64,000 nucleotides of DNA, from positions 3,445,298 through 3,509,297 of the forward strand of contig OZ244810.1 of NCBI GenBank assembly GCA_965220155.1. Direction: 5' to 3'. The notes under the pieces were generated by a model. That model was not told the origin of the DNA, searched no databases, and saw only the letters and a program-made list of their open reading frames with translations. Origin of the DNA: Dehalococcoidia bacterium (GTDB lineage Bacteria; Chloroflexota; Dehalococcoidia; SHYB01). Below, piece by piece: positions 1,113 through 48,205 of this stretch. Numbering within the stretch: the first letter of the stretch is position 1; every line of letters starts with the position of its first letter. Made by a program: the position numbers and the translations under genes.

Positions 1113-2849
1113 CTACTGGTCCAGCCAGAGCTGCTCGTGCCGGAAGATGTTGTGGTGGTTAAAACCCACGTTGGTGTAGTAGTTCTTCACGAAGGGCTGG
1201 TGCCCGATGAAGGACACCCGGTTGATGGCGGGGATATAGGCCCCGTAGTGCTCTTCGAGGATGATCCGCTGAACCTCGAACAGCATTTCTGCGCGCTTGG
1301 CAGAGTCCAACTCCCTGTCCTGCGCAGCGAGCAGCTCGTCAAGCCGGGGGATGGACCAATTGCCGTAGTTGCTCGAGCCGTCGGACAGCACCCAGTTGCT
1401 CAGGTAGTTCGCGGGGTCGTCGAAGCTGATGGACGCGGTGATCTGGTAGATGTCGAAGTCGCCACGCAACACGCGCTCGGTGTTCTCGCGGCCGGTCCCC
1501 GTAAGGAGGTCCGTCTTGAAGCCGAGGCCTCGGACTGTGTTTTCGGTGATCGACCCCCACTCGGGCCATGACGTGCTCGAGAGGATGGTCATGGTGAATT
1601 GGCTGGGGTCGACCCCGGCCTCTTTCAGCAGGGCCTTGGCCTGTTCGATCTCCGCCGGCTTGTCGCTGCCCCAACCCGGCTGGCCCTTCAGAAACGCTTC
1701 GGGGATACCCCATCGGCCACCCAACTCCGGCGCCAGCAGAGGAGCGGAGTAGGGGCTGCCGGCGCCGCCGCGCCAGATGTCGATCAGCGCCTGACGGTCC
1801 ACAGCCAGGTGGAACGCGCGCCGGGCCCGCTTATCGGTCCAGGGCGCCCGCTGGTTGAGGACGTAGAGGGCGGGACCCTGTCCGACCGTTACCGGAACCC
1901 ACCCGGTCGACTCAGTGAGACGCCTGACGATGTCGGGGTCAAGCTCGTTGCTGTTGAATGACGTGACGTGCAGCCGGGCGGTCCGGAAGGCCGCGATGAC
2001 GGTGTCGCCGCGGGCGAAGGTGTACTCGACCGCGTCAAGGTAGGGCAGGCCCTCTACGAAGTAGTCATCGTTCCGTACCAGGGACATGCCCTCCTGGGGG
2101 CGCATGTCTTCTAGCTTGAACGGGCCTGTGCCAACGGGATCTTTCTCGAACGCTTCGAGCTCCTCCGGGAACGGGATATGCGCCGGGTACATCAGGAAGA
2201 CGTTCCTGCCCATCACCCCGAGCAGTGAATTACTGGCCTCCTTCAGGCCCACGCGCACCGTGTATTCGTCGACCTGGGTGACGCTGTCGATGACCGCAAA
2301 TGCGTTCTTGAAGAATCTCATCGCATCGGAGCGCGGCTTCCAGGCCCTATCGATGTTGTAGGCCACGTCCTCGGCAGTAAGGGGGTCGCCATCGTGGAAC
2401 CGGATCCCCTTGCGAATCGAGAAGGTGAGCGTCTGACCAGCGTCGCTGTACTCCCAGCTCTCGGCGATGTCGCCGTAGAGGGGGCTGCCTTCCGCATAGT
2501 TGTCCGGCACCACGAGGTTGTTGTGCACCGGCTGCCAGATCTCCTCGCTTGCGAGCGCGGGTCCGCCGTTCTCGAAGCTGTCGTAGCCATAGGGCTCACT
2601 GGACAGGGCGGGGGCGTGCAGCGTGCCCCCCAGCTTTCCGGCTGTGGGCAACGACGTCATATTGAACTTGCCCATCATCATGGCCTCGGGCGTGGGCGTG
2701 GGCGTCGGCGGTACCGGCGTCGCCGTCGGGACCGGGGTTGCCGTCGGCTGAGGTGTGGCCGTCGGGTCCGCGCCACCGCATGCGGCGACGATAAGTGTGA
2801 CCGCGGCAACTGCGGCGAAGACGAGATGCTTCGGCCCAAGTCTCTTCAT
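1113..2849 (-). CDS. ABC transporter substrate-binding protein, family 5 (peptide/nickel/opine-type), lipoprotein
   Basis: Signal peptide plus lipobox (LIVAACGG), Pro/Thr-rich linker, family-5 SBP length and motifs. Start placed at internal ATG 2849 with GGAGGA RBS. Paralog of 24735 and 26691. Confidence 0.8.
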   Translation of the reverse strand: MKRLGPKHLVFAAVAAVTLIVAACGGADPTATPQPTATPVPTATPVPPTPTPTPEAMMMGKFNMTSLPTAGKLGGTLHAPALSSEPYGYDSFENGGPALASEEIWQPVHNNLVVPDNYAEGSPLYGDIAESWEYSDAGQTLTFSIRKGIRFHDGDPLTAEDVAYNIDRAWKPRSDAMRFFKNAFAVIDSVTQVDEYTVRVGLKEASNSLLGVMGRNVFLMYPAHIPFPEELEAFEKDPVGTGPFKLEDMRPQEGMSLVRNDDYFVEGLPYLDAVEYTFARGDTVIAAFRTARLHVTSFNSNELDPDIVRRLTESTGWVPVTVGQGPALYVLNQRAPWTDKRARRAFHLAVDRQALIDIWRGGAGSPYSAPLLAPELGGRWGIPEAFLKGQPGWGSDKPAEIEQAKALLKEAGVDPSQFTMTILSSTSWPEWGSITENTVRGLGFKTDLLTGTGRENTERVLRGDFDIYQITASISFDDPANYLSNWVLSDGSSNYGNWSIPRLDELLAAQDRELDSAKRAEMLFEVQRIILEEHYGAYIPAINRVSFIGHQPFVKNYYTNVGFNHHNIFRHEQLWLDQ

Positions 2850-3086
2850 TCGTTGTCCTCCAGGCATGTTCCCCCAACTCCAATAGCCGGTAAGTTGGGA
2901 ATTCGCCGAAGACGATAACCCTGTCGCACGGCCGTGTCAACTCTTGGCGCTCAGGCGCACTCGGGCATCGTCCGGGACCGCCGGGACCTTGTCTCTCGAA
3001 CTCAGTGGAGTGGGCGGGCCTGGAGCTCGCGGTGATAGACCCGTCGGGGAGCACGAGGCCGGGTGCCGGAGCTGATCAAGGCGGTG

Positions 3087-4349: not shown

Positions 4350-5483
4350 ATGAGCGAACCCCTGACGTCCGAGGTTGTCGAAGTTGATAGCGTATCCGCG
4401 GCGATGGACCTCGCGTGGGAGGAGGGGTGGACGGACGGTCTGCCTATCGTCCCGCCGACGGCAGACCGGGTCGCCCGCTTTCTGGAGGCCGGGGGCAGGG
4501 CGCCAGGCGACATTATCGGCGCGTACAAGGTCCGGAACCGAGAGATCAACGCGGAAAAGGTCGCCATCAACGCGGTCATGGCGGGCTGCAAGCCGGAGTT
4601 CATGCCCATCGTGAACGCGGCGATCGAGGCCGTCACTGACGAAGAGTTCCACATGAACCACATTGCCAGCACGTCCAGCCCTTGGCCGGCGTTTGTGGTC
4701 AACGGGCCCATCGCGGAGGAGGTCGGCCTCAACGCTGGGCTCTACGTGCTTGGCCCCGGCAGACGCGCCAACGCGACCATCGGACGGGCGGTCAGCCTCA
4801 CCCTGGCGAACTGCATGGACGCGAAGGTTGGGGGTGTCCAGCAAGGGGCAATGGGAAGCCCGTTTCGCCTAGGCGGGATGGTGATCGCCGAGAAAGAAGA
4901 TGATGTCTGGGAGCCGTTGTCGGTCATGCGGGGCTTCAAAAGGGGTGAGAGCGTCGTGACGGCTTTCAGCACCATGGAGGGCCCGCAGGACGTCCGCATT
5001 TACGGAATGCCCCATGTCGACACTGCCGAAGGGCTCACCTCGGTCCTCGCCGAGTATATGTCGGAGGGCTTCTTCTCCCCCGGTCCTCACCTTGTTCTTT
5101 TCTCTCCCTCCTGGCACCGGCTCTATCTGGAGGATGGCTGGTCCAAGCAGGACGTCATCCAGTACCTCGAAGACCATACGAGGAGCAGCGTTGCCCGGTT
5201 GCGAAGAAAGGGACGCCTGGGGCTCTACAAGGCCCACGAGGACAACCTGCATGAAGAGGAGTCCTCCGATATCGATCGGCTCATGGAGCCCGCCGAAAAC
5301 GGCGTGCCAATCATCGAGCCCCACGAGGAGGAGGAGTTCATGTACCACGCAAGGTCGGAACACCGCAGAACAGAGTATTCCGTGGCCGTGGCAGGTGGAG
5401 AGGTCGGGGCCTTCGCCATGATCTTCAAGCCGTACCCGACGGGACCGAACACCGTGAGCAAGGCCGTTCGCAAAGCGGGTTAG
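4350..5483 (+). CDS. Conserved uncharacterized protein, partner of UGSC selenoprotein (paralog 1 of 3)
   Basis: Start at ATG 4350 (AAGAGGA RBS), in frame inside longer GTG-start ORF. Shares motifs EGWTDGLP..PPT, AVMAGC(K/R)PEYMP, NH(I/L)ASTSSPWP, TIGRA(I/V)SLTLANCMDA with ORFs 45171 and 46350. Confidence 0.75.
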   Translation: MSEPLTSEVVEVDSVSAAMDLAWEEGWTDGLPIVPPTADRVARFLEAGGRAPGDIIGAYKVRNREINAEKVAINAVMAGCKPEFMPIVNAAIEAVTDEEFHMNHIASTSSPWPAFVVNGPIAEEVGLNAGLYVLGPGRRANATIGRAVSLTLANCMDAKVGGVQQGAMGSPFRLGGMVIAEKEDDVWEPLSVMRGFKRGESVVTAFSTMEGPQDVRIYGMPHVDTAEGLTSVLAEYMSEGFFSPGPHLVLFSPSWHRLYLEDGWSKQDVIQYLEDHTRSSVARLRRKGRLGLYKAHEDNLHEEESSDIDRLMEPAENGVPIIEPHEEEEFMYHARSEHRRTEYSVAVAGGEVGAFAMIFKPYPTGPNTVSKAVRKAG

Positions 5484-5513: not shown

Positions 5514-6080
5514 ATGGCCGATACAGGACGGCTGACACTGCTGGACCCTACGCTCCCCTACCCGAGCACCAAGGGTAAGCTAGCACCGCGCCTCGATACC
5601 CTGAACGGAAAGGTCGTGGGGTTCCTCGGGAACTCGTTCCCGGGCGCGGACAGAATGCTGGACAGAGTCCAGGAGATCGTCTCCTCAAAGTACGAACTGG
5701 AGGGGATGGTGGTCCGGCACAAGAGCTACCTGGGCGAACCGGCAACCAAAGAGATGTTCGATGAGATGGTCTCCTCCTGCGATGCCGTCTTCACTGCGAT
5801 AGGCGCTTGAGGCTCATGCTGCTCGGCCCTTGGGGTCGACGCGTTCGCTTTCGAGGAGAAGGGCATCCCGGTAGCAGCCCTGGCCATCGATACCCTGGTC
5901 GACAACGTCGGCAAGATGATCGGCCGGCTCCATGGATTTCCGGAATATCCGTACGTGATCATCCCCGCGCCGTTCATCGAGGGGGTGATGATCCCTGAAG
6001 ACATGTGGGAGCAGAAGATCCAGGACGCGGTGACGAAATCTGAGGAGCTTCTGACCGGTACATCGATCTCCGCCGGCTAG
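5514..6080 (+). CDS. UGSC-motif selenoprotein; in-frame TGA at 5808-5810 read as selenocysteine
   Basis: ORF 5505/5514..5810 ends ...FTAIGA-TGA and the same frame continues GSCCSALGVD... to TAG 6078-6080. Homologous over the whole length, including across the TGA, to the 47536 gene; hairpin 13 nt downstream of TGA. Confidence 0.75.
5823..5839 (+). other. Putative SECIS-like stem-loop downstream of the UGA of the UGSC gene
   Basis: ucggccc/gggucga stem (one G-U), 3-nt loop, starting 13 nt after UGA. Positionally and sequence-conserved with the hairpin at 47826. Confidence 0.55.
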
Positions 6081-45170: not shown

Positions 45171-46307
45171 ATGACACTCGATACACGAGACGTAACGGCG
45201 GACAGCGAAGTCGCCGCCATGGAGTACGCCTGGGCCGAAGGCTGGACCGACGGCCTGCCCATCATCCCGCCCACGCCCGAGCGTGTAACGGCCTTCCTCG
45301 AGTATGCCGGACTGGACCCGGACCAGGAAATCGGGCAGTATGCCGTCCGGAACCGCGGAATCACCGCCGCCAAGATAGCCTCCAACGCTGTCATGGCCGG
45401 GTGCAGGCCCGAATACATGCCCGTGGTGGTGGCCGCCATCGAGGCGATCACCGAGCCCGATTTCAAGATGAACCACCTGGCCAGTACCTCCAGCCCCTGG
45501 CCTGTCTTCATCGTGAACGGGCCGATCATCAAGGAGCTGGGCCTCAACAGCGGGGCGTACGTGCTGGGGCCCGGGAGCAGACCAAACGCGACCATTGGCA
45601 GGGCCATCAGCCTGACCCTGGCCAACTGCATGGATGCGAAGGTCGGCGGCGTGCAGCAAGGGATCATGGGCATCCCCGCCCGTGCGGCAGGACAGGTCAT
45701 CGCTGAAAATGAGGATATCTCCTGGGAGCCCCTGAGCATGATGCGGGGATTCCCCCGCGGGGTCAGCACCCTGACGGCCGCGACCCACTATATGGCGGGG
45801 CCCCGGCAGGTGATCGCTCTGCCTGAGCACCTGCCTAAGGAGAACGCGGCATTGGCCCTGGCCAACATGCTGAGCGAGTACTGCGGAGAGGGCTCCCTCA
45901 CTTCGGTACAGACCGTGCTTCTATCCCCGTCGTTCCAACGGGCCTTTGCCTCCGAGGGATGGAGCCGGAAGGATGTCAGGGACTACCTCGTCGAGAACGT
46001 GAAAGCCTCGGTCGCATCCCTGAAGCTCCGCCACCGCTGGCTGGCCGAGACCTGGGAAGAGCCCCTGGTCCATAGCTCGGCCCCAATCTACCCTGGCGAC
46101 GAGAGCAAGTTCGTCTACCACGGGAAGGGCGAAGATTTCGGCAGGAAGATCGGCGGCCACGCGGCGACGCACCCGCGCAAGGACATGGACTACATCATCG
46201 CGGTCGCGGGCTCCGACATTGGGCAGATGTACGCGTGTTTCTTCCGGCCCTACATTCCCGATGGGGCCAATACGAAAGTCATTCGCCCACCAGCGAGCAA
46301 GGGCTGA
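45171..46307 (+). CDS. Conserved uncharacterized protein, partner of UGSC selenoprotein (paralog 2)
   Basis: Shares all family motifs with 4350 and 46350 ORFs. Confidence 0.75.
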   Translation: MTLDTRDVTADSEVAAMEYAWAEGWTDGLPIIPPTPERVTAFLEYAGLDPDQEIGQYAVRNRGITAAKIASNAVMAGCRPEYMPVVVAAIEAITEPDFKMNHLASTSSPWPVFIVNGPIIKELGLNSGAYVLGPGSRPNATIGRAISLTLANCMDAKVGGVQQGIMGIPARAAGQVIAENEDISWEPLSMMRGFPRGVSTLTAATHYMAGPRQVIALPEHLPKENAALALANMLSEYCGEGSLTSVQTVLLSPSFQRAFASEGWSRKDVRDYLVENVKASVASLKLRHRWLAETWEEPLVHSSAPIYPGDESKFVYHGKGEDFGRKIGGHAATHPRKDMDYIIAVAGSDIGQMYACFFRPYIPDGANTKVIRPPASKG

Positions 46308-46349
46308 CGGGCCGCCGGGGACTTGGGGTCCAGGCGGGAGACAAGGACG

Positions 46350-47477
46350 ATGACCCTTCAATCGAACATGGTCGAAGCGGCCAGCGAGATCGACGCGATC
46401 GAGCGCTTCATGGCCATGGAATGGTCCGACGGGCTGCCAGTCGTCCCGCCGACTCCCGAGCGGGTCACCCAGCTTCTGGACTACATGGGGATGGAGCCCG
46501 GGCTCGAGATCGGCCGATCAGAGGTCCGCAACAGGAGCATCACCGCCGAGCACGTCGCCACCAGCGCGGTGGCGGCCGGGTGCAGGCCGGAGTACATGCC
46601 CGTCATCGTCTCGGCCCTGGAAGGGGTCATGGACCCCGACTTCCACATGAACCACCTGGCAAGCACGTCGAGCCCATGGCCTATGTTCATCGTCAACGGG
46701 CCGATCATCGAGGAAATCGGGCTCAACGACAGCACCTATGTTTTGGGGGTTGGCAGCAGGGCGAATATGACCATCGGCCGGGCGATCAGCCTAACCCTGG
46801 CCAACTGCATGGACGCCAGGACAGGCGGCGTCCAGCTTGGCGTGATGGGGAACGGCGCCCGCGCCGCCGGCCTCGTGATGGGAGAGCGGGAGGACTCGAC
46901 GTGGGAGCCCGTGAGCGTCACCAGGGGATTCTCCCCTGGGACCAGCACCGTCACCGTCATCAGCACCTTCGAGGGCACTCCCCGCCAGATATACTTTGGT
47001 CCCGAGCAGATGCCGGCAACCAACCGCGCGGAGGCCACGGCGCACTGGATATCCTACTTCTTCGGAGAGGGCTTTTGCGGAGGGGGCACGCACCTGGTGC
47101 TCCTCCCCCCAGTTGCCCGGCAGGTCTTTCTCGACTCCGGGTGGAAGAAGGAGGACCTGCGGCGCTACCTCGTGGAGAACGTGAGGGCATCGGTGGCGTC
47201 GCTGAAGCGTCGGTTTCTGTGGCCGCCGGGACCGGGGGAGGAGCCCACGACGGAAGGCTCAGCCCCAATTCATCCAGGGGACGAGGACAGGTATATTTAT
47301 CTAGGGCAAGAACCGCTGCCTGGAGGGGACACCTTCGGGAGGGCGCGGCGCAAGGCGGACTTCATTATCGCAACCTCGGGGTCCGAGATAGGGCACTTCC
47401 ATCTGATCATCACCAGCTCCTTTCCATCCGGGCCCAACCCCGTGACGAAGGTCATCCGCCAGTCAGCGAAGAAGTAG
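46350..47477 (+). CDS. Conserved uncharacterized protein, partner of UGSC selenoprotein (paralog 3)
   Basis: Start at ATG 46350 (MTLQSNM...), family motifs conserved. Confidence 0.75.
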   Translation: MTLQSNMVEAASEIDAIERFMAMEWSDGLPVVPPTPERVTQLLDYMGMEPGLEIGRSEVRNRSITAEHVATSAVAAGCRPEYMPVIVSALEGVMDPDFHMNHLASTSSPWPMFIVNGPIIEEIGLNDSTYVLGVGSRANMTIGRAISLTLANCMDARTGGVQLGVMGNGARAAGLVMGEREDSTWEPVSVTRGFSPGTSTVTVISTFEGTPRQIYFGPEQMPATNRAEATAHWISYFFGEGFCGGGTHLVLLPPVARQVFLDSGWKKEDLRRYLVENVRASVASLKRRFLWPPGPGEEPTTEGSAPIHPGDEDRYIYLGQEPLPGGDTFGRARRKADFIIATSGSEIGHFHLIITSSFPSGPNPVTKVIRQSAKK

Positions 47478-47535
47478 AACCGCGAGGTCTTTACTAGAGG
47501 TCTTTAGTCAGAGGACTTTACTTAAAGGAGGCACC

Positions 47536-48078
47536 ATGAAGCTCGTCGACCCGACGATCGGCGTCAGCGCGGCCACCGGGCTGCTCGCAACCAGGGTGGA
47601 GACGCTGGACGACAAAGTCGTTGGCTTCATTTGCAACGGCTACCCCGGAGCGGAGCGCTTCCTGAGACGGGTCGATGAGATCGTCTCGGAAAAGTACAAG
47701 CTTCGGGGCAAGGTGTGGCACATCAAGGACTACATCGGCGAGCCCGCCAAGCCGCACATCCAGGAGGACGTCATCGCCAACTGCGACGTCATCATCACCG
47801 GCCTGGGCGCTTGAGGGTCATGCTGTTCGGCCGTTGCGGCCGAAGCGATTACCCTGGAAGGACACGGCAAGCCGGTAGCAGCTTTCGCGGTGGACACCTT
47901 CGCCAGGACGGTCGGGAAGGCGATGGCCCGACTCCACAGCTTCCCAAACTATCCCCTGGTGGAGATCCCGGCGCCCTTCTTCGAAAGCACGGCGCCTTCC
48001 GACTCCGATTTCGAGACAAAATCGCTGGCCGCAGTCGCCAAGGCGGAGGAGCTCCTCTTTGGCGGGAAACTGGAGTAG
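47536..48078 (+). CDS. UGSC-motif selenoprotein; in-frame TGA at 47812-47814 read as selenocysteine
   Basis: ORF ends ...ITGLGA-TGA then same frame continues GSCCSAVAAE... to TAG 48076-48078. Homologous to the 5514 gene across the TGA. RBS AAAGGAGG. Confidence 0.75.
47826..47844 (+). other. Putative SECIS-like stem-loop downstream of UGA
   Basis: Perfect 7-bp stem uucggcc/ggccgaa with 5-nt loop guugc, starting 12 nt after UGA. Confidence 0.6.
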
Positions 48079-48087
48079 CCCCCCATT

Positions 48088-48149
48088 CGGTTAGGGCCAA
48101 CAAAGGAGTCAGGCCTAACCGAAACGCCAGGTAGCCTGGCGTTTCGGTT
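48088..48149 (+). terminator. Two consecutive strong hairpins after UGSC gene (terminator-like, no U-tract)
   Basis: cggttagggcc/ggcctaaccg with 13-nt loop, then perfect 15-bp stem aaccgaaacgccagg/cctggcgtttcggtt with 3-nt loop. Confidence 0.5.
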
Positions 48150-48205
48150 ACCGTTGCGGCACACCCCGGTTGTGCTCTCGAACGAGCGTCTCTGATACGC
48201 GGGCC

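Follow-up and report, generated by a model that had tools for sequence, protein, structure and literature searches.

Thiol reductases of the MsrA/MsrB-Trx, Prx-Grx and ArsC types are recycled by thioredoxin-like modules that are either fused to them or encoded next to them. The Prd and Grd selenoenzymes are two-gene units in which a small alpha/beta selenoprotein with a U-x-x-C motif (U denoting selenocysteine, Sec) accompanies a larger subunit with an essential Cys, and the mechanistic logic of D-proline reductase that we draw on here is taken from PMC11229817. By analogy, these two groups appear to be the closest working counterparts of a gene pair found at two loci in a Dehalococcoidia bacterium (Chloroflexota), within a stretch of 64,000 nt that we refer to as the window (assembly GCA_965220155.1, contig OZ244810.1, positions 3,445,298 to 3,509,297). 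One gene of the pair encodes a selenoprotein of the UGSC family, which was still of unknown function in reviews of 2022 and 2026 (PMC1976440, PMC2398784, PMC9312934, PMC13188914) and was listed as likely to adopt a thioredoxin-like fold (PMC2398784, PMC13188914). The other encodes a protein of ~375 aa, hereafter the partner. UGSC was already known as a family; what is new is its pairing with an unnamed family of putative catalytic subunits. This pairing is close to obligate, and, judging from sequence comparisons, the partner and UGSC probably, on balance, form a two-subunit thiol- or selenol-dependent oxidoreductase, most likely a reductase.

The features of the two loci, in coordinates of the window, are as follows (ORF, open reading frame; SECIS, selenocysteine insertion sequence).

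4350–5483, forward strand: partner-family gene C of locus 1 (377 aa), an ORF preceded by AGAGGA, a ribosome-binding-like motif.
5514–6080, forward strand: UGSC selenoprotein gene 1 (188 aa including Sec), from TGA read-through translation, with GAAGGGG before the ATG at 5514.
5808–5810, forward strand: UGA Sec codon of UGSC gene 1 (AIGA-U-GSC), an in-frame TGA and the sole one in the ORF.
5824–5838, forward strand: SECIS-like hairpin of UGSC gene 1, from columns 17–31 of the 37-gene alignment and a single-sequence fold.
45171–46307, forward strand: partner-family gene A of locus 2 (378 aa), an ORF with a weak ribosome-binding-like motif upstream.
46350–47477, forward strand: partner-family gene B (375 aa), an ORF in tandem with A, with a GGGAGA/AAGGA motif upstream.
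47536–48078, forward strand: UGSC selenoprotein gene 2 (180 aa including Sec), from read-through translation, with AAGGAGG 7 nt before the ATG.
47812–47814, forward strand: UGA Sec codon of UGSC gene 2 (GLGA-U-GSC), an in-frame TGA and the sole one in the ORF.
47828–47842, forward strand: SECIS-like hairpin of UGSC gene 2 (UCGGCCG-UUG-CGGCCGA), from fold and alignment.
48116–48150, forward strand: perfect 16-bp inverted repeat with a 3-nt loop, 38 nt past the stop of UGSC gene 2.

The partner and UGSC genes are separated by 30 nt at locus 1 and by 58 nt at locus 2, and a UGSC gene ends each locus. The three partner paralogs are 54–56% identical (C vs A 54%; B vs A 56%), with long invariant blocks, and all of them carry (T)DGLP..PPT, NAVMAGC, NGP and R..IGR...L...N. 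The ORFs and identities confirm the three paralogs, the two UGSC genes, the conserved blocks and the spacing of 30–60 nt set out in the original prediction, which a model had made from the letters and their ORFs without database searches.

The association was followed from both genes. A partner-seeded census found at least 591 genome loci, 80 of which were examined; they derive from Chloroflexota, Methylomirabilota, Betaproteobacteria (including Burkholderiales), Alphaproteobacteria, Gammaproteobacteria, Actinomycetota, Myxococcota, SAR324, Binatia and Halobacteria. Of these 80 loci, 69 have a UGSC ORF within ~2 kb of the partner gene, and in 68 cases both genes share a strand. The 11 loci without UGSC comprise two short contigs, one locus (L062) with a fused thioredoxin-fold CxxC domain and eight true orphans. 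The UGSC-seeded census, in which a degenerate DNA pattern over the Sec codon was run on metagenome contigs, returned 120 loci, 117 of them true UGSC. A same-strand partner gene was present in 62 of the 64 loci having at least 900 nt upstream, and in all 33 flanked on either side by 1,200 nt or more. Cys forms of UGSC are also followed by a partner gene, as in Sphingobium and Salinigranum (partner E 4e-84 and 6e-98, respectively). The partner gene comes first in 56 pairs and the UGSC gene in 19. Pairwise distances among partners and among UGSC proteins are correlated (Mantel r = 0.757), with none of 999 permutations reaching as high a value. The outcome named in advance as fatal to the original prediction combined a partner match to a well-characterized enzyme family with a co-occurrence not conserved across genomes; the latter is the opposite of what these 69/80 and 62/64 loci from many phyla show.

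Fusions were surveyed in 270 members of the partner family. In 30 of them, a UGSC domain is fused in-frame to the partner, and both orders occur. Full-length UGSC-partner fusions include at least four Cys forms with CGxC (P0371, P0373, P0300 and P0359), of which P0373 matches PF24696, the Pfam model of the UGSC family, at E 1.6e-44; the CGxC motif was not picked up in the full-length fusions P0292, P0301 and P0307. Partner-first fusions end exactly at '...GD' ahead of U in public gene calls, and ~20 fusion representatives begin with the post-Sec half of UGSC: both kinds are selenoprotein fusions truncated by gene callers. Other redox modules are fused to the partner as well, namely an AhpC-TSA/Redoxin thioredoxin-fold CxxC domain (P0329, E 7e-12; P0326; L062, 5446–7008) and FeThRed_B, the catalytic chain of ferredoxin-thioredoxin reductase (FTR; P0322, E 2e-21), while a ~100-aa domain with a 'GACxDC' motif and no family assignment stands at the UGSC position in some members. 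These fusions lend support to the earlier proposal of an enzyme with a dedicated redox partner. The proteins with an N-terminal redox module in place of UGSC are L062, P0329, P0326, P0322, P0245, P0261 and P0340. Partner-partner tandem fusions of ~710 aa were also found, paralleling the adjacent partner genes A and B of locus 2. A fusion of UGSC to a domain called 'Unknown_1' was noted in 2008 (PMC2398784); this domain is likely the same as the partner family.

The partner has no family that can be named, as first stated from the sequence alone: none of the three paralogs matched a Pfam or NCBIfam model, a Pfam search at E up to 10 returned nothing beyond a sub-threshold DUF7541 stretch, and no PDB chain was matched either by a single sequence or by a 47-sequence profile. 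The family is nevertheless large. A word-index search retrieved more than 6,000 homologues, every named one being called 'hypothetical', and an exhaustive profile search gave 6,825 clusters at 50% identity at E up to 1e-3, 4,534 at E up to 1e-10 and 2,054 at E up to 1e-30. The family profile matches the three window paralogs at E 2e-140 to 6e-152, the latter for gene C.

Across 205 partner members, the conserved positions are D27, G28, L29, P30, P33, P34, T35, N72, A76, G77, C78, Y82, P84, G117, P118, G133, R137, N139, R144, L148, N152, G167, E179, W185, G193 and G347. Two conserved Cys, in 'AGC' and in 'NCM', had been proposed earlier for this protein. The first stands, since 99% of the members have Cys78, within the motif NAVMAG-C; the second holds only in part, as C153 is found in just 53%, the others mostly having a Cys at 154 or 175 instead. 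Cys78 is accompanied by a second Cys (153/154 and/or 175) in 96% of the members. Residues 150–180 (window 45618–45710) distinguish two subfamilies: the window type has 'NCMDA(K/R)xGGVQ' and lacks Cys175, and the majority type has 'N(V/I)xGGxPG' and 'HGHPGKxS(F/Y)CIAENE'. By inspection, UGSC motifs and gene order appear to depend on the subfamily, several UGSC genes located upstream of the partner having 'UGSCT(S/A)W'. In an AlphaFold2 (AF2) model of partner A (predicted local distance difference test, pLDDT, 89), Cys78 sits between two helices, and the modelled fold is apparently novel.

With Sec read as Cys, UGSC genes 1 and 2 match the Pfam 'UGSC family' (PF24696) at E 1e-35 and 1e-31, and the scores of the window proteins, 110.4 and 123.9 bits, pass its gathering cut-off of 25. 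The equivalog cut-off of NCBIfam NF041046 (125) is missed, at 78.8 and 77.6 bits; the window UGSC genes are a divergent subfamily, non-equivalog by the NCBI threshold. Their motif is 'GA-U-GSCCS', vs 'GD-U-GSC(S/T)S' in most UGSC members. TGA occupies the U position in 77 of 79 genomic UGSC genes (UGSC 69, UGAC 5, UGGC 3), the gene of the haloarchaeon Natrialba carries Cys instead (CGSC), and the second Cys of U-x-x-C is invariant. A hairpin begins 16 nt past each window UGA (+17 to +31), and in the alignment of 37 UGSC genes it shows compensatory changes in five of six pairs and an apical-loop consensus AGUGU. At gathering thresholds, Rfam detected no RNA family in the window, SECIS included; it is this alignment that demonstrates the SECIS-like hairpin. 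The identification of the small gene as a UGSC selenoprotein, made originally from the sequence, is therefore borne out by the in-frame TGA-GSC, the PF24696 match and the hairpin.

In public gene calls, UGSC gene 2 of the window (locus L084, 5366–5908) is cut at the UGA into ORFs of 92 and 51 aa, and thus the full-length selenoprotein is missing as an entry from protein databases. This direct case suggests that standard gene calling splits UGSC genes at the UGA and so hides the family. The full-length window UGSC, with U changed to C, gave no match in a word-index search, and, since Sec-form database entries appear to be cut at the UGA, the Cys form from a haloarchaeon was taken as the query. 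A tRNA search of the window found none, tRNA-Sec included. In three unrelated genomes, Sec machinery adjoins the module: selD-selB-selA in L065 (8157–12318), a thioredoxin-reductase-like gene and SelB in L017 (8708–11637), and SelB in L046 (7077–9188).

The structural model of UGSC was built from a Cys-form homologue, not from the window protein, and is a five-stranded parallel alpha/beta, flavodoxin-like structure with the Cys/Sec at a helix N-terminus. A thioredoxin fold was rejected for UGSC on the grounds of this topology. Residues 1–25 (window 47536–47610 and 5514–5600) include a family-conserved 'LDPT...APR' segment modelled with low confidence in the monomer, and this N-terminal segment may be an arm that becomes ordered upon partner binding. 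A profile of 69 UGSC sequences was compared by hhalign with one of 21 PrdB/GrdB-like sequences from Dataset S1 of PMC2398784. The two align over 78 columns, U on U (P 1.5e-4, score 36.6, probability 51%), whereas the reversed control scored 11.7 and 100 column shuffles at most 17.5. The aligned region comprises a strand, the U-x-x-C, a helix and 'E..GIP'. UGSC has no Pfam match to the GrdB/PrdB family (PF07355) because the Pfam GRDB model stops just before Sec. The comparison suggests a remote homology of UGSC to the Sec-bearing part of PrdB/GrdB. The likeness to selenoprotein-dependent reductases proposed in the original prediction, in logic and 'not sequence', is thus upheld as to the logic; the denial of sequence similarity was slightly too strong in view of this weak profile match.

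From the pairing, the fusions, the decoding of Sec, the pattern of conservation and the folds, we infer a flow of electrons, roles for individual residues and a physical complex of the two proteins. The partner would be the substrate-binding catalytic subunit, with Cys78 and a second Cys at 153/154 or 175, surrounded by the invariant polar residues D27, T35, N72, R137, N139, R144, N152, E179 and W185. UGSC would be the Sec subunit, its Sec placed at a helix N-terminus in U-x-x-C as in PrdB/GrdB. Turnover would oxidize the partner, leaving a disulfide or sulfenate on Cys78 or a substrate adduct, and the Sec of UGSC would then attack the oxidized partner. The Cys of U-x-x-C would resolve the intermediate to give a selenenylsulfide, to be re-reduced by a general system such as thioredoxin/thioredoxin reductase.

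A reductase is the simplest model because the partner is paired with or fused to four unrelated modules, all of them with a redox-active UxxC or CxxC. The FTR fusion favours the same model, given that the known role of FTR is to reduce a protein disulfide: FeThRed_B in P0322 would put the partner where the disulfide-bearing target sits in ferredoxin:thioredoxin reductase. This fusion is one cluster representative among the 270 proteins, and the window genes lack such a domain. Like MsrA/MsrB-Trx, Prx-Grx and ArsC, the system combines putative catalytic and resolving Cys with an adjacent or fused CxxC/UxxC reductant and occasional Sec. It differs from them in that the fold and sequence of the partner are unrelated to theirs, and in that the usual reductant is flavodoxin-like and not of the thioredoxin fold.

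Several points weigh against a two-subunit oxidoreductase. The evidence for the function of the pair is comparative throughout, and the similarity between UGSC and PrdB reaches just 51% hhalign probability. The partner has no recognizable cofactor or nucleotide-binding motif, and its model has no neighbour among solved structures that would point to a chemistry. A few members lack Cys78 (Ala in Sphingobium) or have Cys78 alone. Among the 78 partner genes with adequate flanks, eight have no UGSC nearby, and the correlation of partner and UGSC distances owes part of its strength to shared species history.

Among the alternatives, a strict PrdAB/GrdBE-type reaction is unlikely. Here, the partner would form a covalent bond with the substrate, possibly by way of a pyruvoyl group produced by self-cleavage between Gly77 and Cys78, the Sec would attack a substrate carbon so that a C-N or C-X bond is cleaved reductively, and the Cys of U-x-x-C would release the product. 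Pyruvoyl enzymes have Gly-Ser sites, which the Gly-Cys of the partner resembles, and neighbours of the amidohydrolase, amidase and peptide-type binding-protein kinds would suit amino-acid-like substrates. UGSC also aligns U to U with PrdB/GrdB-like proteins, and, as in Prd (PMC11229817), a small selenoprotein gene accompanies a larger one whose product has an essential Cys. However, the partner matches neither GrdE/PrdA nor any other Pfam model at E up to 10, and its membership of the GrdE/PrdA family was rejected for want of detectable similarity in that search. Neighbours resembling PrdH, PrdC, GrdA, GrdC or GrdD were not seen, and, unlike in Prd/Grd, the ten commonest neighbour clusters of the 80 loci include no PrdH, PrdC, PrdD/E, GrdA, GrdC or GrdD. 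Another difference from Prd/Grd is that most of the sampled hosts belong to lineages known more for aerobic or facultative heterotrophy than for Stickland fermentation. Moreover, Cys78 is modelled between two helices and not in a beta-turn, it is absent from some members, and the thioredoxin-fold and FTR fusions better suit the reduction of a partner disulfide than an attack on the substrate.

It is quite improbable that the partner is an iron-sulfur (Fe-S) or metal-dependent enzyme resembling hydro-lyases, with Cys78, Cys153/154, Cys175 and perhaps the Sec/Cys of UGSC as ligands; in that case, UGSC would either donate a ligand or serve to protect or repair the site. The best fold matches of the partner model, which are weak, are class I (Fe-S) fumarate hydratase and L-serine dehydratase. 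A class I fumarate hydratase-type enzyme would have three conserved 4Fe-4S Cys ligands together with the family fold, and the partner lacks this combination. A confident assignment to the Fe-S hydro-lyases was rejected, considering the weak fold matches and the Cys pattern across members.

We give a similarly low probability to a redox-neutral acid-base enzyme (a racemase, epimerase or isomerase) with Cys78 and the Sec as its two catalytic bases, placed where the subunits of a heterodimer meet. Each subunit has one near-invariant Cys, the catabolic contexts include the organic-acid genes PrpD, PrpF, CoA-transferases and TctC, and a composite active site would also predict tight 1:1 pairing and fusions. 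Nonetheless, the invariant Cys of U-x-x-C and the second Cys of the partner (96%) are hallmarks of resolving cysteines, and the thioredoxin-fold CxxC or FTR domains that take the place of UGSC point to net electron transfer. Least probable is a partner that is no enzyme, serving UGSC as a maturation, scaffold or selenium/sulfur-trafficking factor (or the reverse), for although sel genes adjoin the module at three loci and the partner fold reveals no catalytic chemistry, the partner exceeds UGSC in both size and conservation and keeps an invariant set of polar residues and Cys, diverged paralog pairs beside different transporter and catabolic genes suit substrate-specific enzymes, and Cys-form pairs occur in organisms that do not use Sec.

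Beyond the pair itself, no third gene is conserved beside the module, the top neighbour cluster being present at nine of the 80 loci. Pfam scans of representatives of the ten commonest neighbour clusters identified SDR, ABC ATPase, TctC, CoA-transferase III, amidase, SBP_bac_5, TPP enzyme, MFS and SelB, and the tenth had no Pfam match. Several genomes have multiple cassettes, L080 having three in tandem. In the window, the loci are flanked by genes for a zinc alcohol dehydrogenase, a luciferase-like oxidoreductase, an aldo-keto reductase, an enoyl-CoA hydratase, an amidohydrolase, a xylose-isomerase-like TIM barrel and an SBP_bac_5 binding protein, in agreement with the catabolic context (the first three of these) described at the outset. 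The variable catabolic and transporter neighbours, together with the several paralogous cassettes per genome, suggest that the substrates of the putative oxidoreductase are small organic acids, amides or peptide-like compounds, differing by paralog.

The inverted repeat at 48116–48150 possibly marks the end of a transcription unit; as it has no T-run, it is at most a putative terminator. No counterpart of this hairpin follows the other UGSC gene (ending at 6080). The closest genome relative, a Chloroflexi groundwater metagenome-assembled genome (L001, 734–13056), contains four SBP_bac_5 genes, with a UGSC/partner cassette immediately after every one of them, and locus 1 of the window likewise has an SBP_bac_5 gene nearby (1113–2867, reverse strand). 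In the haloarchaea Natrialba asiatica (L079, 5357–7887) and Salinigranum rubrum (L083, 6001–8536), a DUF6282 (amidohydrolase-like) gene comes after the Cys-form UGSC-partner pair, and the Salinigranum pair sits among PrpD, CoA-transferase, acyl-CoA dehydrogenase, aconitase-like and PrpF genes. The orphan partner genes, with no UGSC in 6-kb flanks, are those of L011, L014, L016, L019, L020, L047, L053 and L073; the next gene in L014 encodes a PFL-like glycyl radical enzyme, and a metallo-beta-lactamase-fold gene lies upstream in L053 and L073.

UGSC thereby gains a probable working partner family that is widespread in bacteria and archaea, numbers 4,500 or more clusters at 50% identity and has no Pfam or NCBIfam model. 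The pairing makes the long-standing question of the role of UGSC directly testable, and cultured carriers exist in Sheuella amnicola, Sphingobium, Natrialba and Salinigranum; strain NBD-18 of Sheuella amnicola carries the Sec form, with SelB and a thioredoxin-reductase-like gene beside it. More tentatively, the pair may represent an unrecognized class of selenoenzymes, that is, a reductase free of organic cofactors in which the catalytic subunit has a novel fold and the Sec subunit is PrdB-like. On this reading, it would have diversified in environmental bacteria into many substrate-specific paralogs, encoded next to genes for transporters and catabolic enzymes. If true, this new type of reductase would be a further class of selenoenzyme at work in abundant environmental heterotrophs, and it would account for the rank of UGSC among the commonest selenoproteins of aquatic metagenomes.

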